From Gemmata obscuriglobus (lineage in GTDB: Bacteria; Planctomycetota; Planctomycetia; Gemmatales; Gemmataceae), in NCBI RefSeq assembly GCF_008065095.1, contig NZ_CP042911.1, positions 2,730,001 to 2,762,000 of the forward strand: a stretch of DNA of 32,000 nucleotides, in the 5' to 3' direction. Within the stretch, counting starts at the first letter, position 1, and each line of letters opens with the position of its first letter. The position numbers were made by a program, and so were the translations under genes. The notes under the pieces were generated by a model, which ran no database searches, was not told the DNA's origin, and saw only the letters and a program-made list of their open reading frames with translations. This document shows positions 3,567 to 24,884 of the stretch, piece after piece.

Positions 3567-3695
3567 CAGAGATCGCCCGCCGCAAATCTTCTCTAAACAC
3601 TATGGAACCAAGCACTTCGCGCGTCAAGCCCGTTTATCCGACCCTTCTCGAAAATACGCAAAATCCCCGGGGATTTCACTCATGTGATGAAACAA

Positions 3696-3714
3696 CCCCG
3701 TAGCCTACGGGACT
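3696..3714. repeat. Near-palindromic motif CCCCGTAGCCTACGGGACT, end-proximal copy 1 (partner at 20625-20643)
   Basis: It matches ccccgtagactacgggact at 20625-20643 at 18 of 19 positions. Both copies lie 76-130 bp inside the att repeats. Confidence 0.6.
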
Positions 3715-3831
3715 GGACACGCGCCAACCGAAGGCGCTTGGAATCGCATAAGAGGTCGTAAGTTGGGGCGGTCCGACTTGCTCCGAACGAAGCAAACCAG
3801 ACCGCCCCCAAGTGTGATGGACCTGTCGAAT

Positions 3832-4338
3832 TCAGACCGCCGAGACGTGCGCAAGAGGTCGTCGCTTCGGCTTGGTCGCTTTCGGCTTCGAGGGCTCGCG
3901 AGGTGCCTTAGGTGGCGTTCTCAGTTCCTGCGGATGCAGTGCGAGCAGCGGAGTGAACTCCGCGATTAGCTTCGCAATGGCGGGCGGTTCCAAGAGGAAG
4001 TAGAACTCGGTCCATTCGGCCTCACCGCGGCGCCACTTCGAGAGGCCTTGGAACAACCCAACGTAGAAGGCCGACGAAGACGAGTGATCGACCCCCTTGA
4101 CCTCCCACACCTCGATAGCCGGTGAGTCGAAGTCCAGGCAGTCCCGGTGATGGGTCGTGAGCACGTGTGTCCCGGCGTTCGTGTTAACCCACTCTTGGGC
4201 CTTGCCCGGGAGCCACGGTGCAGGTGCCTCTACCCAAGTGCCCGCGACCGTCGCCTTCCAGCATTTACCGTAGCTGCCGGCATTCGTCGAAGAGCCGCTT
4301 GAGACCGTCGGGGCCGGGATCGTCGTCGGTGCGCTCAT
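3832..4338 (-). CDS. Hypothetical protein with a basic K/P-rich C-terminal tail, last gene of the replication operon
   Basis: ATG at 4338 (MSAPTTIPAPT...) lies 67 nt downstream of the primase-like stop codon. The upstream part of ORF 3832..4530 overlaps the primase-like gene and is R/S-rich. A 9-bp-stem hairpin (3765-3773 with 3800-3808) follows the stop codon. Confidence 0.6.
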   Translation of the reverse strand: MSAPTTIPAPTVSSGSSTNAGSYGKCWKATVAGTWVEAPAPWLPGKAQEWVNTNAGTHVLTTHHRDCLDFDSPAIEVWEVKGVDHSSSSAFYVGLFQGLSKWRRGEAEWTEFYFLLEPPAIAKLIAEFTPLLALHPQELRTPPKAPREPSKPKATKPKRRPLAHVSAV

Positions 4339-4405
4339 CGTGGCTACTCTCGGTGAGGGACAAGGACGGGGCGAACGGGTGGACAGGAACGGCGTAGCGG
4401 CTTGG

Positions 4406-6676: not shown

Positions 6677-6904
6677 GTCGCACGCTCCCGCTGTGCGCAG
6701 GGGATCGCACGCCGCGAGCGCGGGCGCACCACTTCGACAAACCGGCGACGGTGAAGAATCACTGGTGAAACCACTTCACTTGGCCGGTTCGTGGCGGCAA
6801 CCACGGGCCGGCTTTCTTCGTTTCAGAACCAAATCATCGGCGAACAGACCGCCGCTTTTGCAGGTCAGATGCGCTCGATCCCAGAGCGGCCGACTGCACG
6901 CTGG

Positions 6905-7105
6905 CTACACGTGCGTCGTGTTGGTTGCGGCAATGAACCGCGTCACGGCCTCGCGCGAGGTCACGAGGCTCTTGCCAACCTTGACCGCTTCAAGCTTAAT
7001 TCCGCGGATACCCTTCGAAACCCACCGACGTAGGGTCAAGGCGTCACGCTTGATGAACGCACCCGCTTCGCTCATCGTCATTCGGGTTTCGTCTAGAATA
7101 GCCAT
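6905..7105 (-). CDS. Excisionase/AlpA-like helix-turn-helix DNA-binding protein
   Basis: 66 aa. MTMSEAGAFIKRDALTLRRWVSKGIRGIKLEAVKVGKSLVTSREAVTRFI matches the short excisionase-family HTH pattern. It lies just upstream of the replication gene. Confidence 0.7.
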   Translation of the reverse strand: MAILDETRMTMSEAGAFIKRDALTLRRWVSKGIRGIKLEAVKVGKSLVTSREAVTRFIAATNTTHV

Positions 7106-7290
7106 CGGCGTTGCTCCGCTCGGTTGTCAAGCTGATACTCACTCCGAATACTTGTCCGTCGCTTGCGAAGAGCGAACCATCCCACACGCTCCTCAAATCC
7201 GTCTGCGGTTGGTCTGTAAATGACGAAAGCCGGGCGTCCGTGCCCGACCTTCGCCACCGCGGCGCGTACGCACCGCGTCCCGGGGCCGCG

Positions 7291-7614
7291 TCATGCGGCA
7301 TGCCGGGTGTCCCCTGCCACGTTTGTCGCCGGCACGACGCGCTCACCGTCAACGGTCCAGTACGGAAGCTGGCCGTACTGCAAGCCGATGAACTGATCCA
7401 GCGCCCACGCCACGCCCACGGCATCGCGGAACACCGGGGCTAGCGCCTTGTCGTCGGTAAATCGCTTGAACACGTCGCAGAACTCTTGGAGCTGGCAGGC
7501 CATCGCGTCGAGCTGGTCGGTGAGTGCCCAAATCGCTTTGAGGCAGGCGTCAGCGGTTACCCCTTCGGCTTCTGCGATTTCGGCCGGGCTAGTGGGGACC
7601 GGTTCCGTGCTCAT
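7291..7614 (-). CDS. Hypothetical early-operon protein
   Basis: ATG at 7614 overlaps the stop of the upstream gene as ATGA, which suggests translational coupling. 107 aa beginning MSTEPVPTSPAEI... Confidence 0.6.
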   Translation of the reverse strand: MSTEPVPTSPAEIAEAEGVTADACLKAIWALTDQLDAMACQLQEFCDVFKRFTDDKALAPVFRDAVGVAWALDQFIGLQYGQLPYWTVDGERVVPATNVAGDTRHAA

Positions 7615-8021
7615 GCTGCTTCCCCTTTCGCGCTGGCGACAGGGGGCGTGCTGCGCAGGTCCATCGGCAGAATCAGCGCCGGCTCGATGCCACTGCGAAT
7701 GATGTCCAGGAACCAGACCGCGCCCAACACGTCGCGGTGAACGGTCTCGAAGTCTTCGCACAGGTCGCTGGTTCGGAACCCTTCGCCGCGGAGGTAAACG
7801 CGAATCGTGTCCGGGTGATACCGTTCTGTGAATTCGTCGCAGAGCGCTCGAAGGCTCTCGATGGCGTCACGGATGACGACGGCCTCGCGGTACGCCGGGT
7901 GCGCCTTGCAGGCGTCGTAGGCCGACTTGAAGTTGTCCTGATCGGGTTCGGCGGCCGGCGCGGTGCGCACCGGAAGCGGGACCGCTTGCAAAGCGGTCTG
8001 CTCGTGGGTAAAAATGCTCAC
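7611..8021 (-). CDS. Hypothetical early-operon protein, first gene of the leftward operon
   Basis: 136 aa with an ATG start. It shares an RD-x-x-G-x-x-W-x-LD motif with the downstream gene, and it diverges from the XRE regulator gene. Confidence 0.6.
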   Translation of the reverse strand: MSIFTHEQTALQAVPLPVRTAPAAEPDQDNFKSAYDACKAHPAYREAVVIRDAIESLRALCDEFTERYHPDTIRVYLRGEGFRTSDLCEDFETVHRDVLGAVWFLDIIRSGIEPALILPMDLRSTPPVASAKGEAA

Positions 8022-8230
8022 GGCTCTTCGATCTCCTTCGAGGGGGACACGGGGATGCCACCGCCCTGGGGGAGCTGCAATCTCCCCCAGGGCAATTTTG
8101 CGGACAGCATTATGCCGTCGGGCATAGCATGGCTGGTCTTATCGGCTCTGTCAACGGGCATAATTTACCCGTTTCTAAAGAGGTGCCCACGCTTCGCCGA
8201 TTTACCCGGAGTGCAGATTGACCGGCAGAA
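8022..8230. promoter_or_regulatory. Divergent control region between the early operon and the XRE-type regulator
   Basis: It contains an 11-bp-stem palindrome (8064-8074 with 8082-8092). GGCATA(A/G) half-sites lie at 8109-8116 (inverted), 8121-8128 and 8157-8164. The direct repeat ATTTACCCG occurs at 8163-8171 and 8200-8208. Confidence 0.5.
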
Positions 8231-8545
8231 GTGGCAGGATTACCCTTGTCTACCGAACTCGACACGAATCCGGTGGATGGGGGAACCGACTTGATCGCGG
8301 TACTCAAGGATGTCGTGAAGCAAAGCGGACTGTCGCTCAACAAGATCGCGACCGAAAGCGGTCTGAACCAAAGCCAACTGCACCGTTTCGTGACCGGTGA
8401 ACGAACCCTTTCACTCGTCTCAGCAGCGAAGCTATTCGCTTACTTCAAACTTGAAATTGTTGTTCCGACGCCTTTGACGCCTGAAAGTGCCACATCCCAG
8501 ACACCGCCGCAGCTCGCTTCACCCGCCAAGAAGCCAAAAAAGTGA
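8231..8545 (+). CDS. XRE/Cro-CI-type helix-turn-helix transcriptional regulator
   Basis: SGLSLNKIATESGLNQSQLHRFVTGERTLSLVSAAKLF is a typical XRE HTH. The start is uncertain: GTG at 8231 or in-frame GTG at 8273. The C-terminal tail is P/K-rich. Confidence 0.7.
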   Translation: MAGLPLSTELDTNPVDGGTDLIAVLKDVVKQSGLSLNKIATESGLNQSQLHRFVTGERTLSLVSAAKLFAYFKLEIVVPTPLTPESATSQTPPQLASPAKKPKK

Positions 8546-8652
8546 CACGCTGATCTCGATCTCTTCCCCGCTTCTGTTGACTGATGCCGGACGCATAAAT
8601 CGGCCGACAGCGTTGGAGAGGTGTTCGCAGGATACAAGCGAGCCGCTTCACT

Positions 8653-8760
8653 CTGCCCGAAATCGAAGTGTGGCCAAAAAGGGGCGACTTAGTCAGATAG
8701 TAAAGAAGCCTGTCATCTGACTAACTAACCCCATTTCGGCCACACTTCGATTTCGGGCAG
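8653..8760. repeat. 108-nt compound perfect hairpin (23-bp outer stem plus 10-bp inner stem)
   Basis: ctgcccgaaatcgaagtgtggcc (8653-8675) pairs perfectly with ggccacacttcgatttcgggcag (8738-8760). ttagtcagat (8689-8698) pairs with atctgactaa (8715-8724). The structure is intergenic between the XRE and methyltransferase genes. Confidence 0.85.
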
Positions 8761-8788
8761 AACGTTTTCCGGCACTACCGAAGGCTGC

Positions 8789-9724
8789 ATGGCCGACCGT
8801 TCTTGGCCCGCCGCAGGCGTAAAGATTTACCGATTATCGCGAATCGGAGCGACGATGCTGGGGTACTTGAGGCGTGCATGGACCACGTGGCACGCGAAGT
8901 CCGACTTCATTGCTTCCATCCGGCGTAATCCCTCGCACACGCTCTTTTATGCGGCCGAGTTGCAGTTTCCAGAGCTTCAAGAAGTATGGGAAACCGGCGG
9001 CCCGGAGCTTCAACCGTACGAAGGATTGGCGTCAGCGTGGGACGAATACGGCTCCTGCAATCAGCCAGATTATTTAGGATTGATTAAATTTTTATCTGAT
9101 CGACATTCTATCGAGTTGCGATCGGTCCTTGATCTCGCGTGTGGTACCGGGTTACTGACAGCTCGACTCGTCCGCAGCTTCAATGAAGTGGTCGGACTGG
9201 ACGCCAGCCCGCGCATGCTGGAGGTCGCGCGGGCACGCCTGGACGGTTGCAAAGGCGCAAGCTTCGTTTTTGGCGATTTCCGCACGTTTTCGCTAGGACG
9301 TCAATTTGATGTTATTGTTTGCACATTTAATTCGTTAAATTACCTGGGCGACTTGAATGAGTTGTCGGGCACCTTTGCCGTGGTGGCAAAACACCTCACA
9401 CCCGGCGGCATCTTCGTTTTTGACGTTACGACCGAGCGGTCGATGCGCGAGCGGTCCGGCCTGTACGCCCACGTCACCACAAACGCATTCCGGTTCGCGC
9501 TTTACTCCAACTACGACCGAAAACAGCGGAAACAAATCTCACGGGCTATCACGCCGACCGGAATCGAGTTACACCGACGAATCCCGATCAGCCTGCAGGA
9601 CGTGAAGACGGCAGCCCGTGAATCCGGCTTGCGTGTTGAAGAGTGCTTCTCTCCGAGTCTCATTCCGGTCCGCTGGCTTGAAGGGTACGCCTCCTTTTTC
9701 GTTCTTACGAAAGCGCCCGACTGA
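8789..9724 (+). CDS. Class I SAM-dependent methyltransferase (small-molecule/protein type, no obvious DNA-MTase motifs)
   Basis: VLDLACGTGLLT is motif I. FDVIVCTFNSLNYL and LTPGGIFVFD are the post-I motifs. An alternative ATG lies at 8855. The gene contains AT-rich stretches compared with the flanks. Confidence 0.75.
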   Translation: MADRSWPAAGVKIYRLSRIGATMLGYLRRAWTTWHAKSDFIASIRRNPSHTLFYAAELQFPELQEVWETGGPELQPYEGLASAWDEYGSCNQPDYLGLIKFLSDRHSIELRSVLDLACGTGLLTARLVRSFNEVVGLDASPRMLEVARARLDGCKGASFVFGDFRTFSLGRQFDVIVCTFNSLNYLGDLNELSGTFAVVAKHLTPGGIFVFDVTTERSMRERSGLYAHVTTNAFRFALYSNYDRKQRKQISRAITPTGIELHRRIPISLQDVKTAARESGLRVEECFSPSLIPVRWLEGYASFFVLTKAPD

Positions 9725-9733
9725 AAACGCCAC

Positions 9734-9787
9734 CGCGAGCGGCCGGAGTCAGGCACCGTTGCCCAACCCCGGCCGCTCGCGTTTCTA
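9734..9787. terminator. Bidirectional hairpin terminator between the convergent methyltransferase and sigma genes
   Basis: A 13-bp GC-rich stem (9734-9746 with 9769-9781) is flanked by aaaa on the left and gtttct on the right. Confidence 0.55.
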
Positions 9788-9801
9788 TGGCCCCAGCGCG
9801 T

Positions 9802-10755
9802 TCACCGTGCGATTAACTCGCCCTGATCGACCGTCGCGGCCGTTGCCCCCTTCCGGCCCACAGCAGACACCTTCCTGAGCTTCCCGAGAACGGCCCGCCG
9901 ACTCTCCCCGAGCAGTTCGGCCGCTTCGTCAATTGTGAAGTCGCGTGCGAGCAGGGCCTTCACGACTGTCCGGGTGTCGTCGTCCAGGCGGGCCAGCTCC
10001 GCGGTGAACCCGTCCGCCCGTGCGGCTTCGTCAAGGTGGTTCACGACCTGGGCGTTCACCGCGAGGTGACTTCGCTTGCGGTTCAGTTCGTTCGACCGCT
10101 GGCGTTGTTCCGCGGGCACTTTCGATGTCGTGGCGTTGTCGATCTCTTCCGCGCTCACGGCGTGTTGCGTGAACCCGATGCGACACAGCGCCCGCACCGC
10201 GGCCTTCAGGTTGACCCGCACCGACTTGAGCGGGTGACCGAGCTGAACCGCGATCTGATCCGGGGACAGCCGGTCGAAAACAACCAGCTCGACTAACCGT
10301 CGGTGCCCGGCCCCGAGCTTCGACAGCACACCGCCCGCGAGCGTCCGCCGCACCTCGGTTGCCAGCGTGCCCATCGTCTCGTCGTCGAGCGGTTCGTCAT
10401 CCTCGGTGTGGTGACCTGACGGCGCCTGATCCTGTGGCCATGCGAACTTGTCGAAATAGTCGCTGTCCTTGTTCCGAATCGACCCGTCGTCTTCGTGGTG
10501 GTGGTTCGCCTTCCAGTTCTTCAGCGTGTTCTTCATCACCCCGATCGCATACGTGGACCACTTCACGCCGCGGGTCGCGTCGAACTTCTCGGTCGCCTGC
10601 CACACCGCGACTTGAACATCCTGCTCGACGTCCTCGCGGTGCCGCGGGACGATTCCCGAGCACCGCACTTCAGCCCCGATGGCCTTCTGTACCTGCATCA
10701 GCATCGCTTCGCGTTCGGCCTTGGTGCGCGCAATGGTCGTTGCTGTCGCGGTCAT
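9802..10755 (-). CDS. Element-encoded sigma-70-family (ECF-like) sigma factor with an extra C-terminal region-4-like HTH
   Basis: EDVEQDVQVAVWQATEKFDATRGVKWSTYAIGVMKNTLKNW looks like region 2. RRLVELVVFDRLSPDQIAVQLGHPLKSVRVNLKAAVRAL looks like region 4. A second similar segment is TRTVVKALLARDFTIDEAAELLGESRRAVLGKLRKV. Confidence 0.75.
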   Translation of the reverse strand: MTATATTIARTKAEREAMLMQVQKAIGAEVRCSGIVPRHREDVEQDVQVAVWQATEKFDATRGVKWSTYAIGVMKNTLKNWKANHHHEDDGSIRNKDSDYFDKFAWPQDQAPSGHHTEDDEPLDDETMGTLATEVRRTLAGGVLSKLGAGHRRLVELVVFDRLSPDQIAVQLGHPLKSVRVNLKAAVRALCRIGFTQHAVSAEEIDNATTSKVPAEQRQRSNELNRKRSHLAVNAQVVNHLDEAARADGFTAELARLDDDTRTVVKALLARDFTIDEAAELLGESRRAVLGKLRKVSAVGRKGATAATVDQGELIAR

Positions 10756-10951
10756 GCGGCATGCCTCGGTTGTTACGAAAGTGGCTGAGAATTAAGGCGT
10801 TCGACGTGTGGCGGGTACTCGGCATGGGGAGGCCGATATACCCACCTCGGAATTCGGGGCGAATTTTTGGAGCACTGCACGTACGGTCTGCATTACCGGA
10901 ACACATTAAAAATCGTAACAATGTTGCGAGCGTTCCGGCCTTACCCGCCGC

Positions 10952-11353
10952 TCACGCTTCGAGCTGTGTCGTCCAGAGTTCGCCAACGCCGATTTGGCCC
11001 TCGAACGTGACCACCAGCGCGTTTACGGCGTTGGCGAACCCGGTGATGTATTCGAGGTAATTGACCCGGAGCATGCGCCAGAAGGTCAGCGTCTCACCCG
11101 GCCGCACGGACTGCTCGGCAATCAGGGCGGTGCCGGCCGCCGCTGCACCACTGGCCCCAAGGAAGAGACTGAACTTCGCGGTTGCGAGCGAGTCATTGGT
11201 AACGTGGATAGCGCGCAGCTCGATGCACTGCGCGCAGATGCCCGCGTTCACGCCCCCGATCGCGCCGGGCGGGGACAGCAGGTTCTGAGCCTCACCGGGT
11301 GCGGCGGTCGGTATTGCGATCGGTCCCGTGCGAAACGTCTTTGCAGCCGTCAT
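10952..11353 (-). CDS. Hypothetical protein, possibly structural
   Basis: 133 aa. ATG at 11353 has GAGGT upstream. The composition is Ala/Gly-rich and looks beta-rich. No motif was recognised. Confidence 0.55.
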   Translation of the reverse strand: MTAAKTFRTGPIAIPTAAPGEAQNLLSPPGAIGGVNAGICAQCIELRAIHVTNDSLATAKFSLFLGASGAAAAGTALIAEQSVRPGETLTFWRMLRVNYLEYITGFANAVNALVVTFEGQIGVGELWTTQLEA

Positions 11354-11508
11354 GACCGAACCTCATGGATGGGTGGAGCGGTGAACGGTCCGGCGAGTGG
11401 AACGGGACCGGTGACGGTAGAGGTTCTTGGGTCATGGGCGCCGCGGACAATGGGGCTTGGCACCGGGCGGCGCGTCAGTCATGCTGAGGTGAGTTCAGAG
11501 GGGAAGTG

Positions 11509-12306
11509 ATGACGGAAGCGGAATGGTTGACGTGCGAAGATGCTGAGGCGATGTTGGAACACCACCACCGCGCTCCTGATCGCAAGTTGCGACTCTTCGC
11601 ATGCGCGTGTTGCCGCTTAGCTTGGGAGTGCATTCCGCCCGGCTACTACCGCAAGCTTGTCGCCGTTTGCGAACAGTTCGCGGATGGGGATCTTGGAAAG
11701 GGAATCGTTGACCTCGTCCGAAAGCGGGCTCAGAGCGAACCTGTCCAACGCGATGGGGTCGCGCAAGTGCCTCACGCCGCACTCGCAACGGTTCAGCCCC
11801 TCGCGTGGTTGGCTGCTCGCGATGCCTTGCGGACCGCCACTGCCGCCACGTGCCAACGGGCTGTTTACACCGCGAGCGTCGGTGAGCCCGATCTGTCGTC
11901 GCCTGTCAGTGTTGCGGCGGTTCAGGCATGGCAGGAGGACTACAAACGGACGGACGCGTGGAGCAGTTCAGGAAAAGTACCGTGGAACGATAGTCGCCTC
12001 GACGCCGCACGAGCAGCCGAGCAAGTTGCTCGCGCGACCTCGGGGCGGCTATTCGCTTCTGCATTACGCTGCGTGCTCTTCAGTACCTTCAGGAGCATCG
12101 AATTTGATTGGGCCTATCTCACCGCAACGACAGTCGCGATTGCACGCCAGATGTACGAAAGCCGCGACTTCAGCGCGATGCCGATCCTCGCGGATGCGCT
12201 GCAAGACGCCGGGTGCGACAACGACGACGTGTTGAACCACTGCCGCGGACCCGGGCCGCACGTTCGCGGATGCTGGGTTGTGGACTTGCTGCTCGGGAAG
12301 GAATGA
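11509..12306 (+). CDS. Hypothetical protein of a planctomycete/myxobacterial paralogous family
   Basis: ATG at 11509 (GTG at 11506) has GAGGGG upstream. It has the N-terminal EWLTCEDAEAMLEHH..DRKLRLFACACCRLAW motif and the C-terminal MPILADALQDAGCDNDDVLNHCRGPGPHVRGCWVVDLLLGKE motif. I recall both from many Gemmata-like paralogs. Confidence 0.7.
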   Translation: MTEAEWLTCEDAEAMLEHHHRAPDRKLRLFACACCRLAWECIPPGYYRKLVAVCEQFADGDLGKGIVDLVRKRAQSEPVQRDGVAQVPHAALATVQPLAWLAARDALRTATAATCQRAVYTASVGEPDLSSPVSVAAVQAWQEDYKRTDAWSSSGKVPWNDSRLDAARAAEQVARATSGRLFASALRCVLFSTFRSIEFDWAYLTATTVAIARQMYESRDFSAMPILADALQDAGCDNDDVLNHCRGPGPHVRGCWVVDLLLGKE

Positions 12307-12433
12307 ACGCGGCGGGGAAGTGCCCGGGGCTGGCCGACTCGGAACGACGACGGCTCCCACAAACGACCGCGACCGGCCGGAACCGGTAAAGTGGTCCCGA
12401 ACCGGTCGCGGGGATGCTCAGTCGGCGCAAGGG

Positions 12434-12976
12434 TTAGACGAAGGCGAGGAACGTCGGCTTCCCGCTAATCTCGACCGTGAGTTCTATAGTGATGCGATTG
12501 TCTTCCGGAATCTCGACGGGGCTGGACTTGATGAACCCGGTGAGGAGCCAGATGCCGTTGTCCGGAAAGAACACGGCCCAACTCAGCCGGCCCCATTTCG
12601 GGTGCGTGTAAGGCGCGATGTTCGGGTCGCCGGCGGGCATCAGCGTTTGGAGTTTCGCCAGTAGCCCTTTGTTCGAGTTCAGGCGCAACGTGAGCTGCCC
12701 CGCGTCAAGGAACCCCGGGATCTTCTCCGCGGCCATGCCGGGTGAGCGCAGGTGCGTCAACGGCGTGACGCTCCGCTCCATCGGCACGCCGTTCAGGGAG
12801 ATGACGTCGCCCAGTTCCTTCCAGACCGCGGAGTTGTTGGTAATCGACAGGTGCGTGTTGTACGGCGGCACCGTGGGCTGGTATGGTGGTATGCCAGAAG
12901 GGCCGGTTGTCAGGGTCACGAAATCGGCGTAGTACAGGGCCGTATCGAAGCTGTTCATGCCGGTTGCGGCACCCAT
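12434..12976 (-). CDS. Putative phage structural protein, tail-tube-like (function uncertain)
   Basis: ATG at 12976 is preceded by GGGGAG, whereas the ORF track starts at a TTG at 12991. SVTPLTHLRSPGMAAEKIPGFLDAGQLTLRLN and the C-terminal ITIELTVEISGKPTF resemble conserved blocks of major tail (tube) proteins. It lies downstream of the capsid gene on the same strand. Confidence 0.45.
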   Translation of the reverse strand: MGAATGMNSFDTALYYADFVTLTTGPSGIPPYQPTVPPYNTHLSITNNSAVWKELGDVISLNGVPMERSVTPLTHLRSPGMAAEKIPGFLDAGQLTLRLNSNKGLLAKLQTLMPAGDPNIAPYTHPKWGRLSWAVFFPDNGIWLLTGFIKSSPVEIPEDNRITIELTVEISGKPTFLAFV

Positions 12977-13075
12977 GCGAGAACTCCCCAAGTGGTTACG
13001 ATCTGGGGAGGTTCTTGGACGACGAGGGACGATGTGAGGTGTTCGCGTTGCTGGCCAACACAGAACGTCGATGGC

Positions 13076-13225
13076 TCACTCAAAACACGGGGCCGCGAGT
13101 ACGATGTTGGCCCCGTCCACCGGGTTCGAGGTGCGTACGATCCAGGCGCGCCGGTACCGCTTGTTGGTGTCAACGTCCTTCGACCCGTCCCGGCCCGTGA
13201 TTTCTTGAACGAACACGACCGACAT
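13076..13225 (-). CDS. Possible 49-aa protein, below the ORF-track cutoff
   Basis: Hand translation gives MSVVFVQEITGRDGSKDVDTNKRYRRAWIVRTSNPVDGANIVLAAPCFE. There is a strong G/C third-position bias. It lies between the HEPN gene and the tube-like gene on the same strand. Confidence 0.35.
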   Translation of the reverse strand: MSVVFVQEITGRDGSKDVDTNKRYRRAWIVRTSNPVDGANIVLAAPCFE

Positions 13226-13287
13226 GAGGAGCGCTCCCGCGGGTGAGTGCTATTCCGCGAGAGGTTCTTGTGCGACGGGTGCGGTGC

Positions 13288-14316
13288 TTAGCATTCACGC
13301 AAATCGTTCATTAGCAGCGGATCATCGAGGTAATGACGCATCAATGCGGTAGTAGAACGGGTAATAAACTCCAGGGCGATGGCTGGAGACCTGAGGCAAG
13401 AGAACTCATTTGAGAAATTAGGCTTTGATCCGTGTGCAATGGCGCTGCGATATGAATATAATATCCTCCAAGACTGCACTTCCATTGTATGTTTATTTGT
13501 GCCCTTCACACCTAGCAAGTCATAAGGGATAGGCAGTTTGGAACGGTGGCCAACTAGTGCCATTTTCTTAGATACTTGATTTGTTAATGAATCTGCTGGA
13601 TTATTCTGGTCTGATTTATGGGCAATTAGTGATTCAATTATGGATACATACCCTAAAAACCGAAGTGCGGAGTGAGATGGTATACTGTCTAGTTGTGCAA
13701 ATTGTGTCAAGGCATTGGCGAGCCGGGGGATGGTGTCGCGCCCGGATTTTAATTTCGTGTACACACTTTTCATATCATCGATATCCGCCTCGGTAACATT
13801 GCAAAATACTTCGTCCGAATTCCAGAACGCTTCGCTATGGCGGGCTAAATTAGAGTATCCGCCGTAACAAGGGGCAGGGCTGCCAGGGAACGTGTGGACG
13901 ACCATTCCCATCTGTAGGCGGTTCTTTGTAAGAATTGTAGATTCAATAAAGTCAAAAAGCTGCCGGCTCGGTCCGTCAAAGTATACTACGTGATATCGCC
14001 ATTGATCTTGCGGGAGATTTTCTACAATTATGGAGCTATGGCTCGACGATTGCCTTTCCTCGCGCACGAACGTTTCATACGGATTCCGCAAAGGGAACGA
14101 GAACGCCCGCGGCGGGTATGTTAAAGCAAACGCCTTCTGTAGCGTGGCAAGTTCGTTAGGTAGAGCTCGGCGCAACTGAAGCCCATCGTCGATTTTGAAC
14201 GATCCATTAAGAGGAAGAGCCCCCAGATTAATCACTTGCGCGAATCCGGAACCATTCAGATCTGAATGAGCAGTAGTGGTAAATTCAATGAATTGCTTTT
14301 CTGATTCAATCATCAT
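13288..14316 (-). CDS. HEPN-domain protein (Rx4H motif), candidate abortive-infection/defence cargo
   Basis: 342 aa with an ATGATG start. The C-terminal SWRILYSYRSAIAHGSKPNF contains R-SAIA-H, which fits the HEPN Rx4-6H signature. The gene is visibly AT-rich: my hand count for 13561-13620 is 18/60 G+C, versus 43/60 at 14941-15000 in the capsid gene. Confidence 0.6.
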   Translation of the reverse strand: MMIESEKQFIEFTTTAHSDLNGSGFAQVINLGALPLNGSFKIDDGLQLRRALPNELATLQKAFALTYPPRAFSFPLRNPYETFVREERQSSSHSSIIVENLPQDQWRYHVVYFDGPSRQLFDFIESTILTKNRLQMGMVVHTFPGSPAPCYGGYSNLARHSEAFWNSDEVFCNVTEADIDDMKSVYTKLKSGRDTIPRLANALTQFAQLDSIPSHSALRFLGYVSIIESLIAHKSDQNNPADSLTNQVSKKMALVGHRSKLPIPYDLLGVKGTNKHTMEVQSWRILYSYRSAIAHGSKPNFSNEFSCLRSPAIALEFITRSTTALMRHYLDDPLLMNDLREC

Positions 14317-14458
14317 TTGTGGCCATGCCCTTTTTAATGATATTTTTTCTTGTTCTGCCTGGATTCTATCTTGTCGATGCGGTTTTTACAAGCAATTGCG
14401 TCATTGCTGTGCGAGACACTTTCTCAGAAAAGGAGGTAATAAGGTAGGAAAATATGGC

Positions 14459-14499
14459 GTCCCAGGCGAGCCAAAATCCCCTTTTGGCTCGCCTGGGAC
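14459..14499 (-). terminator. Perfect 18-bp-stem hairpin just downstream of the capsid gene
   Basis: gtcccaggcgagccaaaa (14459-14476) pairs with ttttggctcgcctgggac (14482-14499) around a 5-nt loop. It lies 23 nt after the capsid TAA. On the minus strand it is followed by gccatattttcc. Confidence 0.7.
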
Positions 14500-14522
14500 A
14501 CAGCTTAGTCGCTTGTCTTTGT

Positions 14523-15857
14523 TTACGGATGCACGAGGTGCCGAATCGGTCCGGTTCCGGCGTTCAGGACTCGCGAGTCGGACCGCAAGAACCCGATGAA
14601 CCCGACCTGATCGAACTCCGCGTACCGCTCCTCCAGCTTCTTCAGCCGGAGCCCCCGCACGTCCCGAATCTTGAACTTCCGGAACGGCCCCGCGAGCATC
14701 GTCTTCGCCCCGCTCGCCGGCGCGCTGTCCATGTTCTGGTTAATCACGTACCGCACGCCCTTGATCTTGTCCGGGGCGCCGTTCTGGCCCTCCTCGAACA
14801 GGTACCGGCCCTGACCGTCCTTGAGCTTGCGGATGATGGCCAGGATGCCGTCATGGAACATGAGGCGGAACGACGGGTCGCGGCGGTACGCGGGATCGAC
14901 CGAGTGAATCAGGTCGATGATCTCGTCTGCCGTGAGTGCCGAACCGCTGGCGGCCGTCTTGCCGAGCTTGGAACCGGTCACCACGCCCTGCGGCTCGCTC
15001 GAACCGCGGCCGACGGTGAAGTGCCGGTTCTGCGCCCGCCCGATGCGCTCCCCGAGCAGTTCGCCCAGGAACGTATCCAGGTCGAATTCGGTATCGTCCA
15101 TCAGCTCGCTCGGCACCTTGACCATCTTCGAGCTGTACTTGTACGCGCTCAGCAGCGTGGTCCCGACCTTCGCGTCCTGGGTGCTCACCTCGCGGTTCTC
15201 GCCGATCAGCTCGCCTTCGTTGCTGGTGTCGTCGCTGGTCGGCCACGGCATCGGGGCGCCGTCGTCGGTGCGGAGCACGTCGGCCACCTCGCGCGGCCCG
15301 CTGTAATCCTTCAGCGCCTTCTCGATGGCCCCGGCGAACTTCCCGCCCGCGATCAGACTCGCCCCGCTGGACGGCTGTTGGGCCGACATGGCGCGGGATT
15401 GGGGTCCCTTGCCCGGGTGCCGATCCAGACGGATTTCGAGCACCTTGCGGTTCGGGTTCAGCCCCATCGTCCGACACGCCCGCTTGTGCGCGTCGGTCAG
15501 GTCGAACCCGTGCTGGCGACGGCACCACGCCTGCAACGCCAGGGACCGCATCTCTTCGGCCGCTTCGGCGCGGTACCGGCGGGTGGCCTTGTTGCGCATG
15601 CTCCGCGGCACCGTGTCTTCTAGGCCGGGGATGTTCCGGCGGTCGCCGGGTCCGTCCAGGATGGCGCCCACCTCGGCGGCCCGGCGCTGCGCCTCGATCA
15701 GGTCCGACTTCTGGTTGAACTCGGTGTTCAGCCGTTCCCACTGTGACCGCTCTTCGGCGTTGAAGTCGCGGCCCTCGGCTTGGAGCACGTCGGCCATCTT
15801 GCGAATCTGAACGCCGATCGGTGCCCGCTCTTCTTGCAACTGCTTGACGGAGGGCAT
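14523..15857 (-). CDS. Phage major capsid protein, HK97 family
   Basis: ATG at 15857 (MPSVKQLQEERAPIGVQIRKMADVLQAEGRDFNAEERSQWERLNTEF) opens a coiled-coil delta-domain-like N-terminus. The core block LLSAYKYSSKMVKVPSELMDDTEFDLDTFLGELLGERIGRAQNRHFTVGRGSSEPQGVVTGS matches the HK97 MCP signature. The overlapping ORFs 14454..15623(+) and 14851..15996(-) are shadow frames. Confidence 0.92.
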   Translation of the reverse strand: MPSVKQLQEERAPIGVQIRKMADVLQAEGRDFNAEERSQWERLNTEFNQKSDLIEAQRRAAEVGAILDGPGDRRNIPGLEDTVPRSMRNKATRRYRAEAAEEMRSLALQAWCRRQHGFDLTDAHKRACRTMGLNPNRKVLEIRLDRHPGKGPQSRAMSAQQPSSGASLIAGGKFAGAIEKALKDYSGPREVADVLRTDDGAPMPWPTSDDTSNEGELIGENREVSTQDAKVGTTLLSAYKYSSKMVKVPSELMDDTEFDLDTFLGELLGERIGRAQNRHFTVGRGSSEPQGVVTGSKLGKTAASGSALTADEIIDLIHSVDPAYRRDPSFRLMFHDGILAIIRKLKDGQGRYLFEEGQNGAPDKIKGVRYVINQNMDSAPASGAKTMLAGPFRKFKIRDVRGLRLKKLEERYAEFDQVGFIGFLRSDSRVLNAGTGPIRHLVHP

Positions 15858-16187
15858 GGTTGCTCTCGGTTGGGTGGTGATGAATCCGAACGACACGCGC
15901 CCCGAAGTGTCGAAGGTTCCCGCCGGCTGGGCGGCGGCCCTCCCGAACAACGGTCAGCAGTGGTCGTGAGCGGTGCCCGGTATGCCCGTCGGACACCGCT
16001 CACGGCCGGCGGAGGGGTGAACGAACGCGGCGGTCGCTGGGTACCGCCGCGTTGCTCCGCACCTACAAGCATTGGTCGTCGGGCCGATGGGAAATGCGCT
16101 CGCCGAACGGACGCAAACGATCTTGCGTCCGACCTCGCTGGCCGACTATGCTCTCTCACCTTGACCACCATTCGAAACGGTGCCGAC

Positions 16188-16640
16188 ATGAAGAAGAGCC
16201 ACCTGATTGCCATTTGTGCCGCGGCAATCGTCGCATGCGGGATCAGCCTCGCGCAACAACCGAATACGACGCCCCCTGCGCCTCACCCGGGCATCCCGGC
16301 GACAAACACTCTTCCTCCCCCTCGCTATACTCCTCGCTACGATCTGGCCTCACCTCCCGGGCGGGACACAGTAACGCCGTATGCTCCCGCAGGGCTTCCG
16401 AACGAAGAAGTGAAGCCGGAAGACTTGTCCATCGAACAGTTGATTGAGGCGATGGAGAAGACGCGGGCCGAAATCGTCGAGCGGGAGAAGAAGAACCAAG
16501 CGCGCCTGAAGGTCCTTCAGGATAAAGTTGGCAAGGTGAAGACGCGCATGGACACGTTCACCGGAAACCCGCAGCCAGTCGTTGTGCCTGAGATTGTCCC
16601 CCCAGAGTTGCCCACAAGCCCACTGCGGATAATTCGGTAG
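16188..16640 (+). CDS. Secreted proline-rich / coiled-coil protein encoded opposite to the head module (moron)
   Basis: ATG at 16188. MKKSHLIAICAAAIVACGISLAQQ looks like a signal peptide. A P-rich segment follows, then the charged helix EDLSIEQLIEAMEKTRAEIVEREKKNQARLKVLQDKVGKVKTRM. The gene has its own hairpin terminator. Confidence 0.7.
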   Translation: MKKSHLIAICAAAIVACGISLAQQPNTTPPAPHPGIPATNTLPPPRYTPRYDLASPPGRDTVTPYAPAGLPNEEVKPEDLSIEQLIEAMEKTRAEIVEREKKNQARLKVLQDKVGKVKTRMDTFTGNPQPVVVPEIVPPELPTSPLRIIR

Positions 16641-16662
16641 TAAACCAGCTTTGTTAGCAGGA

Positions 16663-16710
16663 AAGAGCCGGATGGCCTAATGCGCGGGCGCCATCCGGCT
16701 CTTCATTTTC
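16663..16710. terminator. Hairpin terminator between the convergent genes 16188..16640(+) and 16718..17356(-)
   Basis: aagagccggatggc (16663-16676) pairs with gccatccggctctt (16690-16703). The hairpin is followed by cattttc. Confidence 0.65.
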
Positions 16711-16717
16711 ACTCATA

Positions 16718-17356
16718 TCACAGCAGGTCCGGGAACGCGGCGTTGACGGTAGCCGCGTCGGTATGCCCGTCGTGGATCAGCTCGCGGGCGAACTCGGCGA
16801 ACCCGTCTCGGTCGGCCAGTGACACCGGCACCCGGCCGTTGAACGGGCTGAACGTGTTGCTCCCTACCCCGCGCGTCTGGATGTCCTCAACCACGAGCCG
16901 GAACGCCTCGATCCGTTTCACCGCGTCGAGCCAGTCGCGCACCGCGGCCCGCACGCCGGGCAAGAACACCTCTTCGCGAACTACCGCCGTCAGTTCACGG
17001 GTCGCCGTCTCGCGGGCCTTGCGGACGTCGTCGGCCACCAGCTCGACGGCCTGGGCGGTCACCCGCTCGGTACGCCGCGCCTCGCGTAGCTTGGTGATGC
17101 CGTCGGTGGACTGCCCGCGGGCCAACAGCTTCGCTTCCAGCTCTTCATCCGACTCGCCGGACTTGGCGCCCAGCTCGCGTTCGAGCTGCACACGGGTGCG
17201 GCGGGCGGTGGCCAACTGCTCGCGCAGCGCGTCGTGACGACTTACCGCGGCAACAACCGCCGGATGGTTTTCCAGGCTGGGAATCTCGAACCCCTTCGGC
17301 TCGCTCGGAGCGGTCGCGGTGCGCGGTTCGGCCACGGGTGCGTTCTTCTTGCTCAT
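16718..17356 (-). CDS. Alpha-helical/coiled-coil protein between the protease and capsid genes (possible scaffold or accessory head protein)
   Basis: 212 aa. ATG at 17356 has AGGTGA upstream. It contains long charged helices (RHDALREQLATARRTRVQLERELGAKSGESDEELEAKLLARG...). Assignment is by position in the head module, and no specific motif was recognised. Confidence 0.55.
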   Translation of the reverse strand: MSKKNAPVAEPRTATAPSEPKGFEIPSLENHPAVVAAVSRHDALREQLATARRTRVQLERELGAKSGESDEELEAKLLARGQSTDGITKLREARRTERVTAQAVELVADDVRKARETATRELTAVVREEVFLPGVRAAVRDWLDAVKRIEAFRLVVEDIQTRGVGSNTFSPFNGRVPVSLADRDGFAEFARELIHDGHTDAATVNAAFPDLL

Positions 17357-17440
17357 GTGGTCACCTGGGTGAAGGACGGGGCGGGAACACTTGGTGGAAA
17401 ATTGCCACCAAGTGTTCTTTCGGGAATGGGGTGCGGCGTG

Positions 17441-18049
17441 TCAGTTGGCCATCGCCAGCATGACTTCGACGGCGCGGGCGCGGGCCTTAACCGCGGCGTG
17501 GCTGATGCCGCTCCGGGACTTGATCCACTCGTTTACTTCGGCCCGCACGCCCGTGTCGGTGGCCGTGTACGCGGGGAACGTGACCGGCCCAACGTCGTAC
17601 AGCTCGACCGCGTTCCGCTCCACGATGTACAGCCCGTCCACGTCGCGGTAGGTGTTCGAGACCGGGCGGAACATGAACGAGCTGCCCGTCACGTCCCCGC
17701 GGCGGATCGACTCGACGACATCCCGGCCCGCGGTCGTGTCAGGCGGGTCGATTTCGTACTTGAGCCCGCGCTGATCGGTCCACACGCGCAGGGTGCCGGC
17801 CCGCACGCGGCCAAGGATGTTGTCGTCGCGGTGGTTGAACAGGGCGCGCACGTCGCCCTCGCGAAGGGTCTTGTCGAAGGCGCCGGGCATGATCCGCTCA
17901 ACCATGTCCTCGAACATGCGGTATTCGGTCCCGGGGTCGGCCGGGTTGTAGAACACCGCGGCGTAACCGGTGATGACCGGCTTGCCGCCGCGGGTGTGCA
18001 GGTCGACCGGGAGCCCGCGCGCGTTGCGGGTGTAGAGGGGGTTCGGCAT
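17441..18049 (-). CDS. HK97-family prohead serine protease (peptidase S78)
   Basis: ATG at 18049 has GAGGTG upstream. ITGYAAVFYNP...ERIMPGAFDKTL..GDVRALFNHRDDNILGRV...WTDQRGLKYEIDPPDTTAGRDVVESIRRGDVTGSSFMF matches the conserved His and Ser blocks of prohead proteases. Confidence 0.9.
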   Translation of the reverse strand: MPNPLYTRNARGLPVDLHTRGGKPVITGYAAVFYNPADPGTEYRMFEDMVERIMPGAFDKTLREGDVRALFNHRDDNILGRVRAGTLRVWTDQRGLKYEIDPPDTTAGRDVVESIRRGDVTGSSFMFRPVSNTYRDVDGLYIVERNAVELYDVGPVTFPAYTATDTGVRAEVNEWIKSRSGISHAAVKARARAVEVMLAMAN

Positions 18050-18315: not shown

Positions 18316-18978
18316 ATGAGTCCGCTAACGCCTGCCCAGATAAAAGATGGGATGATAAAGATACAAAGCAATTCTCGAGAATTAATCGAGGACGCTCGCG
18401 TTCTATTCGCAGCAAATCGCTTTGTTCGATCTTTCACCCTAGCCCATCTTGCGAGCGAAGAGCTAGCCAAGATCGGGATGCTATTTAGGGCTGGAATATT
18501 CACGATATGTGGAATTCCAGTTGACTGGAAATCGTTGCGCAAAAGGCTTGCAAATCACAAGAACAAGTTAAGGCTAGAGTCGCTATGGGGGATTTCGCAG
18601 CTTGAGCAATTCAGGAAAATGACGGGCAAAGACTTTGCAAATATGATTGAGAAAACATGCTTGCACAGAAACGAAATGAAGAATGCAAGCATTTATGTTT
18701 CAATTGATGGAAATCAATTTGTTGATCCTAAAGAGGTTATCACGCGCGAGAATGCGGAACGCGCAATCAAGCTTGCGGAGCGCTCCTTTACGGAAACGGG
18801 TGAAGTAATTGAATCGTATGCGTCCACACTCTCGAAGCCAGAAAGCGTTGCCCAAGAGATTTACTCAGACTACCATCGATTAATGCAACAAAGCCCTCAG
18901 GAAATGCTCGAATGCATGCGCGAAATGCAACATGCACTCGGCGAACTCATACGAACAAAGTCGGACAAGATGTCATAG
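18316..18978 (+). CDS. AbiV-like (HEPN-type) abortive-infection protein
   Basis: ATG at 18316 has GGGGAG upstream. ELIEDARVLFAANRFVRSFTLAHLASEELAKIGMLF and LANHKNKL resemble the AbiV-family signature. The gene is AT-rich: my hand count for 18661-18720 is 18/60 G+C. Confidence 0.6.
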   Translation: MSPLTPAQIKDGMIKIQSNSRELIEDARVLFAANRFVRSFTLAHLASEELAKIGMLFRAGIFTICGIPVDWKSLRKRLANHKNKLRLESLWGISQLEQFRKMTGKDFANMIEKTCLHRNEMKNASIYVSIDGNQFVDPKEVITRENAERAIKLAERSFTETGEVIESYASTLSKPESVAQEIYSDYHRLMQQSPQEMLECMREMQHALGELIRTKSDKMS

Positions 18979-19194
18979 CTACTTAGCCAGTAGTGCAATT
19001 ATCTCATCCCGCATTTCCTTTGGAAGAGTCGGCCACCGCGCCACGAGTCGGGCTAAATCGGTGTCCGTTCGGAGTTGTGTAAGCAGGAGTGCAATCTTCT
19101 CCATGTAACGGTCGCAAAAGCTTTCGGGACAGGGCTTTTGCGATGTCACCACATCTCTTTCGAAAAGTACGGTTCCTCTCGTTTTCGAGTTCAT
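18979..19194 (-). CDS. Small protein translationally coupled to the integrase
   Basis: Its ATG at 19192-19194 overlaps the integrase TGA at 19191-19193 as ATGA. The C-terminal motif is LARLVARWPTLPKEMRDEIIALLAK. Its stop codon directly abuts the stop of the convergent AbiV-like gene. Confidence 0.5.
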   Translation of the reverse strand: MNSKTRGTVLFERDVVTSQKPCPESFCDRYMEKIALLLTQLRTDTDLARLVARWPTLPKEMRDEIIALLAK

Positions 19195-20546
19195 CCGGTT
19201 TCACGTGCAATTCGCTTTCGCACTGCGCTTTGCGGGTCAACGTAAATGGTGCGGGCCACTTCTTCCGAGTCCCCGATGACCGCCGCCGCCGCCGAGTTGC
19301 TTTCGTAGATCCTCATGACCTCGGTGGCGCGCGAGTGCCGGAGCTGGTGCGGCGTCCACGGCTTCACTCCGGCCCGCTTGCAGGCGTCCTTGACCCGGTT
19401 CCCGTAAGTGCCGCGTCGAATCGGTGTCGGCGGATCGGAACCGACAGCCGGGTAAATGAACACGAGGTCGGTGGCCGACTTGCCTTCGAGCAGGGGCGCG
19501 AGGATCGCTTGCGCCTTCGGGCCGATGAAGTACTCGAGTTCCTGTTCGCGGTGCTCGTTCTTGTGCGTGTCCGGGACGTAGCGCCAGACGTCTTCGGTGC
19601 GGTCCAGGTCGCCGGCCCGCATCGACACGAGGTCTTCCGGTCGGCCACCGAGCCACCAGTGAACACGCACGAGCGCTTCGAGAACAGCCCGGCACGCTTC
19701 GTTCTGGTGCAGGTGCGGGAACACGGCTTCGACGTTGGCCCACGGTGCCGCGGTCTTCTTTGGTGTCTCACGGGCTTGACTCTTCCCCTTGATGAGACGC
19801 CCCACGGCCTTCAACTCATGCCACACGTTGGCGGGTACGAGCTTCCGTCCCACGCCCCAACCGAACATGTGGACGATTCGCGACTGGTAGCCGTTGATCG
19901 TGCTGCGTGCCAGTCCCTGCGAGGCCGGCTTACCGTTCCGCTTGGGGCGAGCCTCGATCATCGCCCGACGCACGGCCCGGAGCTGATCCGGACCGAATTC
20001 ATCGACCGTCAGTCCCGAGTGTGATTCGAGCAGGTAGGCCACCGCCGCACGCTGGGCGTGAATTTCCGACGTGAGCTTACCGTGCTTTCGATACCCGCCT
20101 TCGCCGTCGTCACCCTGTTCGCAGTATTCGAGCCATTGTTCGGCCAGCTCGCACACGAGAAGCGTTTCGCCCAACGGCACCGGGGACTTCTTCACGAGCT
20201 GGGTGGCCCACTCCAACTGAAACCGTGCGTAAGCCTGTTGCGCCTCTTCAGAGCCCCATTTCCCGAAGTAGCGAACGTTCCGCTTGTTCCCCATTTGCCA
20301 TTCGCAGTGAGCCTGCCCGGTGGCTTTGTGGGGCTTCATGCGAGGGCAGGGGCGGACCGACGCGACCGCGGGCTTGGAAGTCGGACGGAACCGGCGGTCG
20401 GGTTTCGTGCTGACGGCGTCGGCCACCGACCACCCGAGTTTGATTCGGGCGTTAATGGTCGTGACCGGCACCCCGTGCCGTTTTGACCACTCTTTGAGGG
20501 TGAGCGATTCAGCACCAACTGTGTACAGTTTCGGCGGGTTGGGCAT
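19191..20546 (-). CDS. int: Tyrosine-type site-specific integrase
   Basis: 451 aa. It has GGRPEDL (catalytic Arg block), HQLRHSRAT (H-x-x-R) and a downstream Tyr in ARTIYVD. It lies next to the tRNA-Pro att site. ORF 19089..20024(+) is a shadow frame. Confidence 0.9.
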   Translation of the reverse strand: MPNPPKLYTVGAESLTLKEWSKRHGVPVTTINARIKLGWSVADAVSTKPDRRFRPTSKPAVASVRPCPRMKPHKATGQAHCEWQMGNKRNVRYFGKWGSEEAQQAYARFQLEWATQLVKKSPVPLGETLLVCELAEQWLEYCEQGDDGEGGYRKHGKLTSEIHAQRAAVAYLLESHSGLTVDEFGPDQLRAVRRAMIEARPKRNGKPASQGLARSTINGYQSRIVHMFGWGVGRKLVPANVWHELKAVGRLIKGKSQARETPKKTAAPWANVEAVFPHLHQNEACRAVLEALVRVHWWLGGRPEDLVSMRAGDLDRTEDVWRYVPDTHKNEHREQELEYFIGPKAQAILAPLLEGKSATDLVFIYPAVGSDPPTPIRRGTYGNRVKDACKRAGVKPWTPHQLRHSRATEVMRIYESNSAAAAVIGDSEEVARTIYVDPQSAVRKRIARETG

Positions 20547-20718: not shown

Positions 20719-20794
<76 letters not shown>

Positions 20795-24795: not shown

Positions 24796-24879
24796 GCCGA
24801 GGTGGCGGAATTGGCAGACGCACTAGATTCAGGTTCTAGCGCTCGCAAGGGCGTGGAGGTTCAAGTCCTCTCCTCGGCA
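24796..24879 (+). tRNA. tRNA-Leu (anticodon CAG), long variable arm
   Basis: The acceptor pairs GCCGAGG with CCTCGGC. The anticodon arm is CTAGA-TTCAGGT-TCTAG. The variable arm is GCGCTCGCAAGGGCGT and the T arm is GGAGG-TTCAAGT-CCTCT. Confidence 0.9.
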
Positions 24880-24884
24880 CCTTC

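Follow-up and report, generated by a model that had tools for sequence, protein, structure and literature searches.

Can a small integrated element that encodes a phage capsid protein and its prohead protease, and no machinery to package DNA, be a functional satellite, or is it what is left of a phage? The question is raised by a 32,000-nucleotide stretch of DNA from Gemmata obscuriglobus (RefSeq assembly GCF_008065095.1, contig NZ_CP042911.1, positions 2,730,001–2,762,000), here called the window, in whose coordinates all positions are given unless another locus is named. It holds a 17.2-kb element integrated in tRNA-Pro(GGG) and bounded by 45-bp exact direct repeats. An earlier reading of the letters alone, the original prediction, described a head module without packaging machinery, drew an analogy to those phage-inducible chromosomal islands that form capsids (cf-PICIs) and kept a decaying prophage as the main alternative. 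We find that the alternative is now the better-supported reading: with a probability of roughly 55%, the element is a recently reduced, rearranged defective (cryptic) prophage of an uncultured HK97-like Gemmataceae phage lineage, carrying the abortive-infection gene AbiV and other cargo.

The extent of the element is defined by the 45-bp repeats, the tRNA-Pro gene and the integrase gene adjoining it (Table 1), so that the bounded element of about 17 kb described originally stands. A draft contig from 2008 (ABGO01000003.1, locus L004) is 99.7% identical to the window over 14.4 kb, and the two differ only in three short patches where substitutions and indels cluster (14936–15059, 9773–9790 and 8739–8756), a pattern typical of draft errors. 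The capsid gene is split in this draft into open reading frames (ORFs) of 297 and 112 aa. We rejected the split as evidence of decay; since it coincides with one of the three patches, it is probably a draft error and not a strain difference.

Profile matches bear out the three structural genes recognized in the original prediction: an HK97-type major capsid protein with a delta-like N-terminus, an S78 prohead protease and a possible tube-like protein. The PF05065 match spans capsid residues 205–463, and from end to end, the ~100-aa N-terminal delta region included, the protein can be aligned to more than 100 homologues of 431–445 aa; its delta domain has normal length. In an alignment of 100 homologues, 60 columns reach a conservation of 95% or more, and the window protein keeps every one of them; the median homologue deviates at one. 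A neighbour-joining tree places the protein as sister to a phage capsid clade, on a branch that is not noticeably long. The protease shares with its homologue in the related phage L006 the motifs LFNH..ILGR and GSSF, which we take to be the His- and Ser-containing catalytic-residue motifs of the S78 family. The tube protein is 53–63% identical, full length, to the gene located between tail-completion gp17 and the chaperones in L006, L007 and L008. The coiled-coil protein proposed between protease and capsid stood in part: a helical 212-aa ORF, p212, is found there, but its profile gave only weak matches to designed coiled coils in the PDB, and a PHROG scan of family members was uninformative. 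The p212 family comprises 38 clusters without annotation, and its homologues lie just upstream of the capsid gene in loci L002 (49%) and L097 (56%). The strong terminator behind the capsid gene, taken originally as a sign of function, is present with a 20-bp stem, but an equivalent hairpin follows the capsid gene in every related phage examined and is a trait of the whole family. Upstream of the capsid start, a 44-nt stretch (15898–15940) is 84% identical to the equivalent position of L001 and may be a conserved leader or promoter element.

We scanned the 19 ORFs taken as genes against Pfam and PHROGs, the unassigned ORFs against NCBIfam and PADLOC, and the whole window by tblastn (E < 0.1) with 85 proteins from four complete relatives. 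No terminase, portal, tape-measure, baseplate or lysis gene, as stated originally, and no connector gene was matched in these scans, intact or fragmentary; of the missing genes, the only trace is a 46-aa piece of the one located behind the tape-measure gene. Recovery by tblastn was limited to the protease, the capsid, the full-length tube and the 49-codon ORF that contains this fragment, and the family-specific large (TerL) and small (TerS) terminase subunits, portal, connector, HCP, gp10, gp17, tape-measure and chaperone proteins left no trace in the window. Frameshifted terminase or portal fragments, which the original prediction named as a mark of simple decay, are likewise absent at this threshold, and only the tail-gene stump was recovered. 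The Walker A pattern, also reported missing, occurs in window ORFs only as two chance matches inside the integrase. Gaps between called ORFs are at most ~300 bp, which leaves no room for sizeable pseudogene remnants. Because TerS, TerL, HNH, portal, connectors, chaperones, tape measure, tail tip and lysis genes are all missing, the element is unable to build or fill virions by itself.

Relatives of the capsid protein number more than 1,700 (1754 matches), the closest ones being from Gemmataceae. It is 70% identical to the capsid protein of the complete phage P0001, 68% to those of P0002 (from a Gemmata metagenome-assembled genome, MAG) and P0003, and 67% to that of P0005; further relatives are P0012 (61%), whose phage was met in 24 runs, and P0017 from Frigoriglobus tundricola (58%). 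P0001, P0002, P0003 and P0005, the four closest homologues with context, all lie inside complete modules, and wherever the contig is long enough the gene order is (HNH)–TerS(Terminase_4)–TerL–portal–S78 protease–capsid–connector–HCP–gp10–gp17–tube–chaperones–tape measure–301-aa protein (x301). A metagenome scan with a capsid profile yielded 80 more loci. Among the first 91 loci, each of the 32 with at least 4.5 kb of upstream sequence has a portal gene upstream of the capsid gene, usually with TerL, and the same holds for L092, L093, L095 and L096, fetched later. The best 120 of the 1754 matches include no second close homologue from G. obscuriglobus. Identity to the capsid protein of any deposited phage reaches 33% at best, and no closely related phage has been isolated for planctomycetes. 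Two of the relatives show features of their own. L095 carries, at its positions 1312–4205 just upstream of HNH and on the opposite strand, genes for an AAA_15/AAA_23 ATPase and a Cap4 nuclease, likely a defence module. The L005 prophage (Frigoriglobus tundricola CP053452.2) has five opposite-strand genes between the protease and capsid genes, and its head-tail module is broken at 13684–16395 by IS66-family (TnpB plus DDE) and ISAZ013 transposase genes.

The 49-codon ORF consists of the first 46 codons of the 301-aa gene that comes after the tape-measure gene in complete phages. It is ended by a stop, and its place, with the capsid gene on one side and the tube gene on the other, does not agree with the phage order. 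The stump is 70–83% identical to its full-length homologues, which are themselves 72–80% identical to each other. A dead fragment is thus as well conserved as functional genes, and the lack of decay elsewhere in the element shows only that reduction was recent on the timescale of family divergence. The original argument that intact genes speak against decay is therefore weak; the retained genes also stand out of phage order. Since the circular gene order also differs from that of the phages, rearrangement is needed besides deletion. The element is phage-derived, lacks essential virion genes and contains truncated and rearranged phage genes, as expected of a defective prophage; relaxed constraint is not seen (60 of 60 conserved capsid columns, no frameshifts), which is uninformative if reduction was recent.

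We propose that the ancestor was a temperate HK97-like cos siphovirus of a lineage infecting Gemmataceae, from which deletion and rearrangement would have produced the 17.2-kb derivative. The derivative keeps (i) the integrase and both attachment (att) repeats, the divergent helix-turn-helix (HTH) switch, a small HTH protein at the AlpA position, a DnaG-type primase and a sigma factor of the extracytoplasmic-function (ECF) type, and (ii) four islands of the late region, namely protease–p212–capsid, the tail tube, the 46-codon distal-tail stump and a ~95-nt cos-like motif. Additions to it are AbiV and p342 as low-GC cargo, together with a methyltransferase and ORFs on the opposite strand. Today it probably persists as a resident island whose selectable benefit to the host would be phage defence, and the capsid, protease and tube genes would be recent leftovers, not yet degraded and without a dedicated role.

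Two chromosomal relatives from Gemmataceae, L097 and L098, also lack portal and terminase. In L097, a remnant, a p212 homologue is accompanied by a tape-measure stump of 225 aa, three insertion sequence (IS) elements and a capsid gene that is split at a G6 run; as this homopolymer lies in a contig that is possibly a long-read assembly, we do not regard the split as firm evidence of a pseudogene. The ~10-kb island L098 occupies the identical tRNA-Pro(GGG), has no detectable second att copy and borders on an IS and a fragment of a host gene. Its integrase is 42% identical to that of the window element, its p756-like primase 31% (over 574 residues), its sigma factor 33% and the product of its intact capsid gene 52%. 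Backbone and capsid gene thus co-occur in more than one genome. Caution is needed, as each reduced copy is differently arranged and looks degraded, and recurrent retention of the capsid gene is an ascertainment effect, since the loci were found through that gene. Conserved synteny among homologous elements, which the original prediction would have counted in favour of function, is not what the portal-less relatives offer; one is IS-ridden and the other has no detectable second att copy. Moreover, the capsid protein of the window resembles those of complete phages (68–70%) more than that of L098 (52%), which leaves no capsid clade peculiar to satellites. L010 (MAG GCA_037025045.1, positions 83–14127 of that locus) may represent another kind of reduced phage-derived element in Gemmataceae: it is a small island with integrase, HTH_17 and primase/AAA_25 genes, a head-maturation protease of the S49 type (phrog_53, 2e-72) and two ORFs that resemble a tape measure and TerS.

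The sigma factor and the replication and integration module named in the original prediction are confirmed by profile matches and, for the primase, by its predicted fold. No profile matched the 756-aa ORF p756. An AlphaFold (AF2) model of its first 340 residues (mean predicted local distance difference test, pLDDT, 83.4) matched the DnaG core, T7 gp4 and T4 gp61 at E 3e-6 in Foldseek; on this model, p756 is a zinc-finger/Toprim primase. Its C-terminal ~400 aa are without assignment, and the ORF has no helicase P-loop. The DUF1580 HTH gene occupies the place usual for AlpA or an excisionase, and its L097 homologue matches HTH_17 weakly. In L097, homologues of p83, DUF1580 and p168 flank a DUF5906 replication protein that resembles x680 of the complete phage L007. 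At the end of L099, a 39-kb phage-like contig, genes for a p756-like primase, HNH and an ECF-like sigma factor follow one another, which makes a sigma factor near the packaging junction a trait of the phages of this group. Together, the L097 homologues and the L099 gene row indicate that the backbone is phage-derived as well.

The original prediction did not contain a further feature found here, a conserved non-coding motif of ~95 nt at 10827–10916. Sensitive blastn of the window against related loci showed it to be 80–84% identical over 86–92 nt to intergenic DNA of L005 and L007, more than the flanking coding DNA, and a profile of the motif then also found it in L095/L096 and L092/L093, with 80–90% identity across L005, L007, L095 and L092. 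It consists of five conserved blocks, CGATTTTTAA / TGCAGACCGTA / AAAAAT / GAATTC / GTAYWTCSG, which include two A/T-tracts. In all four phages, which are complete and independent, the motif has the HNH gene (or the last early gene) on one side and the packaging operon with its first gene (x80–TerS or TerS) on the other. In HK97-type phages this HNH-to-packaging junction is where cos is found, and the HNH protein gp74 promotes cos cleavage (PMC9410871); HK97 TerS recognizes a 15-bp site close to the cut that includes an A-tract (PMC11331095). Its position makes it somewhat more probable that the motif is a cos site than that it is anything else. It may instead be a promoter or leader, because it ends 13–25 nt before the next start codon in the phages. 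A search for a sigma-70-like promoter in or around the motif found none, the GAATTC palindrome is not conserved as a hairpin, and the exact motif pattern has no match in IMG/VR or JGI metagenomes. The small phage ORFs x80, x66 and x680 near TerS gave no Pfam assignment.

Several observations weigh against a mere remnant. The window retains just the core of the motif, homology ending right outside it on both sides, and L098, an island without TerS, has a diverged copy with the same blocks between the primase gene and the 3′ end of the convergent integrase gene; both facts are easier to explain if the motif is used, for instance as cos for the terminase of a helper. With intact genes for integrase, regulators and primase, and with att repeats that match exactly over 45 bp, the element looks able to excise and replicate. 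The structural genes that it retains are all full length and cleanly bounded, the capsid protein keeps its conserved columns, and its branch is not noticeably long. Finally, the sharing of integrase, primase, sigma factor, capsid gene and tRNA target with L098 at deep divergence could point to a long-lived reduced lineage.

These observations are the substance of the strongest rival, a helper-dependent satellite of the cos type, which we consider possible but distinctly less likely than the defective prophage. The element would be induced, or its host superinfected, by a related HK97-like Gemmata phage, and would then excise and replicate with its own primase. TerS, TerL and HNH of the helper would cut and package it at the cos-like site, the helper would also supply portal, connectors and tails, and the element's capsid protein, protease and perhaps tube would co-assemble with or replace helper proteins. 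This could give capsids sized for 17 kb and interference with the helper, as Ccm of SaPIbov5 does. Its support comes mainly from the retained motif and the intact integration and replication functions, joined by the conservation of the capsid, protease and tube genes and by the cos-type islands of Staphylococcus aureus (SaPIs) considered below. Against it, there is no known helper; the capsid protein has a delta domain of normal length and is 68–70% identical to ordinary phage capsid proteins, far from the distance between Ccm and its helper counterpart; the tube gene and the dead tail-gene stump have no role in the scheme. The regulatory reading of the motif, the dissimilar and degraded reduced relatives, the ascertainment effect and the empty metagenome search for the motif count in the same direction. 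The broader proposal, in which the window element and L098 belong to a lineage of planctomycete cos satellites that integrate in tRNA-Pro and have an integrase/primase/sigma backbone, bring their own capsid protein (the window element also protease and tube), borrow portal, terminase, connectors and tails and are packaged via 10827–10916, is more doubtful still.

The capsid protein and protease might instead have been domesticated, forming portal-less, DNA-free shells for the host or the island under control of the island's sigma factor, as a decoy or assembly poison against related phages or as an encapsulin-like compartment. HK97 capsid protein and protease do form proheads without a portal, the matched pair is intact here with p212 between the two genes, and the island also bears the defence gene AbiV. 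We regard this as improbable: there is no evidence of long-term maintenance in the reduced context, the nearest relatives are ordinary phage genes, conservation is just as high in the dead tail-gene stump, only one element has this layout, and no cargo-targeting or encapsulin features were found. That the element is a small complete phage whose portal, terminase or connector is hidden among the unassigned ORFs (p133, p168, p136, p83, p266, p342 and the C-terminal part of p756) is close to refuted, as no Walker A ORF exists, the only portal-sized unassigned ORFs are the low-GC p342 and the primase, the family's portal, TerL, TerS, connector and tape-measure proteins had no tblastn match, no tail genes past the tube and no lysis genes are present, and p133 is an orphan. 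Of the ORFs that the original prediction singled out for a check, 12434–12976 is the tube and 13076–13225 the tail stump, and p133, p168 and p212 are without assignment.

Table 1 Features of the element and its integration site (window coordinates)
Feature	Position	Strand	Evidence and remarks
attL repeat	3522–3566	.	45-bp exact copy of tRNA-Pro 3′ half
p168, no assigned function	3832–4338	−	34%-identical homologue after replication gene in L097
p756, DnaG-type primase (predicted)	4406–6676	−	N-terminal 340 aa: zinc finger plus Toprim/RNA-polymerase domain
DUF1580 small HTH protein	6905–7105	−	Pfam 5.5e-8; directly upstream of primase
p83/p107 small early protein	7291–7614	−	57%-identical homologue in L097
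p136 small early protein	7611–8021	−	Divergent from HTH gene
Cro/CI-type HTH regulator, likely repressor	8231–8545	+	HTH_3 4e-5; phrog_4268
SAM-dependent methyltransferase, cargo	8789–9724	+	Methyltransf_25 2e-18
ECF-like sigma-70 family factor, extra region-4 copy	9802–10755	−	33%-identical homologue adjoins capsid gene in L098
Conserved ~95-nt non-coding motif, candidate cos (packaging) site	10827–10916	−	Between p133 and sigma gene
p133, orphan ORF	10952–11353	−	Coding-like GC3
p266, no assigned function, cargo	11506–12306	+	Opposite strand
Tail tube protein, full length	12434–12976	−	phrog_158 4e-7
Truncated tail-gene remnant, 49-codon ORF	13076–13225	−	46 codons, 71–83% identical to L006, L007, L008
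p342, low-GC foreign gene, no assigned function	13288–14316	−	GC3 0.46
Terminator-like hairpin 3′ of capsid gene	14457–14501	−	20-bp stem
HK97-type major capsid protein with delta domain, intact	14523–15857	−	Phage_capsid PF05065 8e-51; phrog_10 6e-55
150-aa protein, cargo	16188–16640	+	Opposite strand; hydrophobic N-terminus like lipoprotein signal
p212 (212 aa), helical	16718–17356	−	Between protease and capsid genes; small family
S78 prohead protease, intact	17441–18049	−	Peptidase_S78 1e-38; phrog_80 8e-49
AbiV (HEPN) abortive-infection protein, low-GC defence cargo	18316–18978	+	PF18728 3e-28; TIGR04498 6e-34; PADLOC AbiV
Tyrosine integrase	19191–20546	−	PF00589; phrog_1 6e-22; adjoins tRNA; 42%-identical homologue in L098
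attR repeat, 3′ half of tRNA-Pro(GGG)	20719–20763		45-bp exact match to 3522–3566
tRNA-Pro(GGG), integration target	20719–20794	−	ARAGORN

The remaining genes of the element are mostly cargo or without assignment. GC content at third codon positions (GC3) is 0.46–0.48 in AbiV and p342, compared with 0.8–0.9 in host and phage genes, which marks both as foreign cargo. PADLOC and NCBIfam gave nothing for p342, p266, p168 and p133, and sequence searches of the PDB with p133, p342 and p756 were empty. Among 5.8 billion clusters p133 found no homologue but itself; its single-sequence AF2 model (pLDDT 47.6) was unusable and was discarded. An E-value scan of the element with Rfam returned only the tRNA and spurious miRNA-like matches on hairpins. 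One source of these is an inverted repeat at 8652–8761, between the HTH stop and the methyltransferase start, whose 47-nt arms are 89% complementary around a 16-nt loop; it gives spurious mir-5928 matches on both strands and could be a bidirectional terminator or an origin-like structure. Outside the element, the host ORFs 1–855 and 1010–2263 (window 1–2284) contain 72-nt tandem repeats that encode 24-residue leucine-rich repeats (VTDAGVKELAGLKALTTLxL), the second ORF with a hydrophobic N-terminus resembling a signal peptide, and a tRNA-Leu(CAG) gene lies at 24796–24881, 4 kb past the element, with no associated integrase or repeat in the window.

If the element is a defective prophage, its analysis is routine genome archaeology with two modest gains: (i) a first outline of an uncultured HK97-like temperate phage family of Gemmataceae, including its likely cos region, and (ii) a tRNA-Pro island with AbiV in a model planctomycete. 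If the element were a satellite, phage satellites would extend to Planctomycetota, for the first time in this phylum, with a new design in which the satellite brings shell and protease and neither portal nor motor, between SaPIbov5 with its Ccm and the cf-PICIs. Such a design would bear on whether capsid-forming satellites arise by gene loss from phages or by acquisition of modules from them.

The cf-PICIs are defined by int, alpA and rep, by capsid, protease, portal and head-tail connector genes and by HNH, TerS and TerL; tail genes are absent from them, and the identity of their capsid genes to those of any phage stays below 40% (10.1101/2022.09.08.507074). The element resembles them as a ~15–17-kb island with integrase, AlpA-position HTH protein, primase, capsid and protease genes. 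It differs in that portal and head-tail connectors, together with HNH, TerS and TerL, are missing, in that a full-length tail-tube gene and a distal-tail stump are present, and in that its capsid protein is 68–70% identical to those of complete phages. Since only the int/alpA/rep group plus the capsid and protease genes are represented, the element is not a cf-PICI. The overall reading of the original prediction is thus retained for its gene inventory and its small bounded element and abandoned for this analogy, and what survives of the satellite idea is the possible helper-dependent mobilization weighed above. Gene transfer agents of the RcGTA type, head-tail clusters that include terminase and portal and are free of integration or replication genes, are no match, as the element has no terminase or portal and carries an integrase and a primase.

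A closer precedent is provided by the cos SaPIs SaPIbov4 and SaPIbov5, ~14-kb islands without terminase or portal that carry the helper cos and encode Ccm, an HK97-fold capsid homologue making small capsids; Ccm shares ~19% identity with the helper's capsid protein, its delta domain is shortened, and it is unable to form capsids unaided (PMC5052747). By analogy the resemblance appears real: in both cases a 14–17-kb integrative island without terminase or portal combines a cos-like sequence with an HK97-fold capsid homologue that has a delta domain. The element has no terS, and its conserved ~95-nt motif from the HNH/TerS junction is a putative cos by position. Helper induction, cos function and small capsids are predictions for the element, whose capsid protein is full length and phage-like and is accompanied by its own protease, a tube gene and a dead tail-gene stump.

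Its orthologues point to the HK97-like cos siphoviruses (HNH / P27-family TerS (Terminase_4) / TerL / portal / S78 protease / capsid), with which the element has in common the capsid, protease and tube genes, found in Gemmata, Frigoriglobus and Urbifossiella contigs, the post-capsid terminator and the HNH–TerS intergenic motif. About two thirds of the morphogenetic module are missing, and the surviving pieces are reordered. An example of the cryptic prophages of bacterial chromosomes is Escherichia coli e14, a ~15-kb tRNA- or gene-integrated remnant carrying defence genes. Like it, the element is small and bounded and combines an integrase, scattered intact and truncated morphogenesis genes, no packaging motor and acquired defence cargo, here AbiV. 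It differs in its perfect att repeats, a regulatory and replication module that looks complete, a probable packaging signal and its planctomycete host. Taken together, the scattered intact and truncated late genes, the altered gene order, the foreign defence cargo and the degraded sister loci form a picture that a cryptic prophage fits best.

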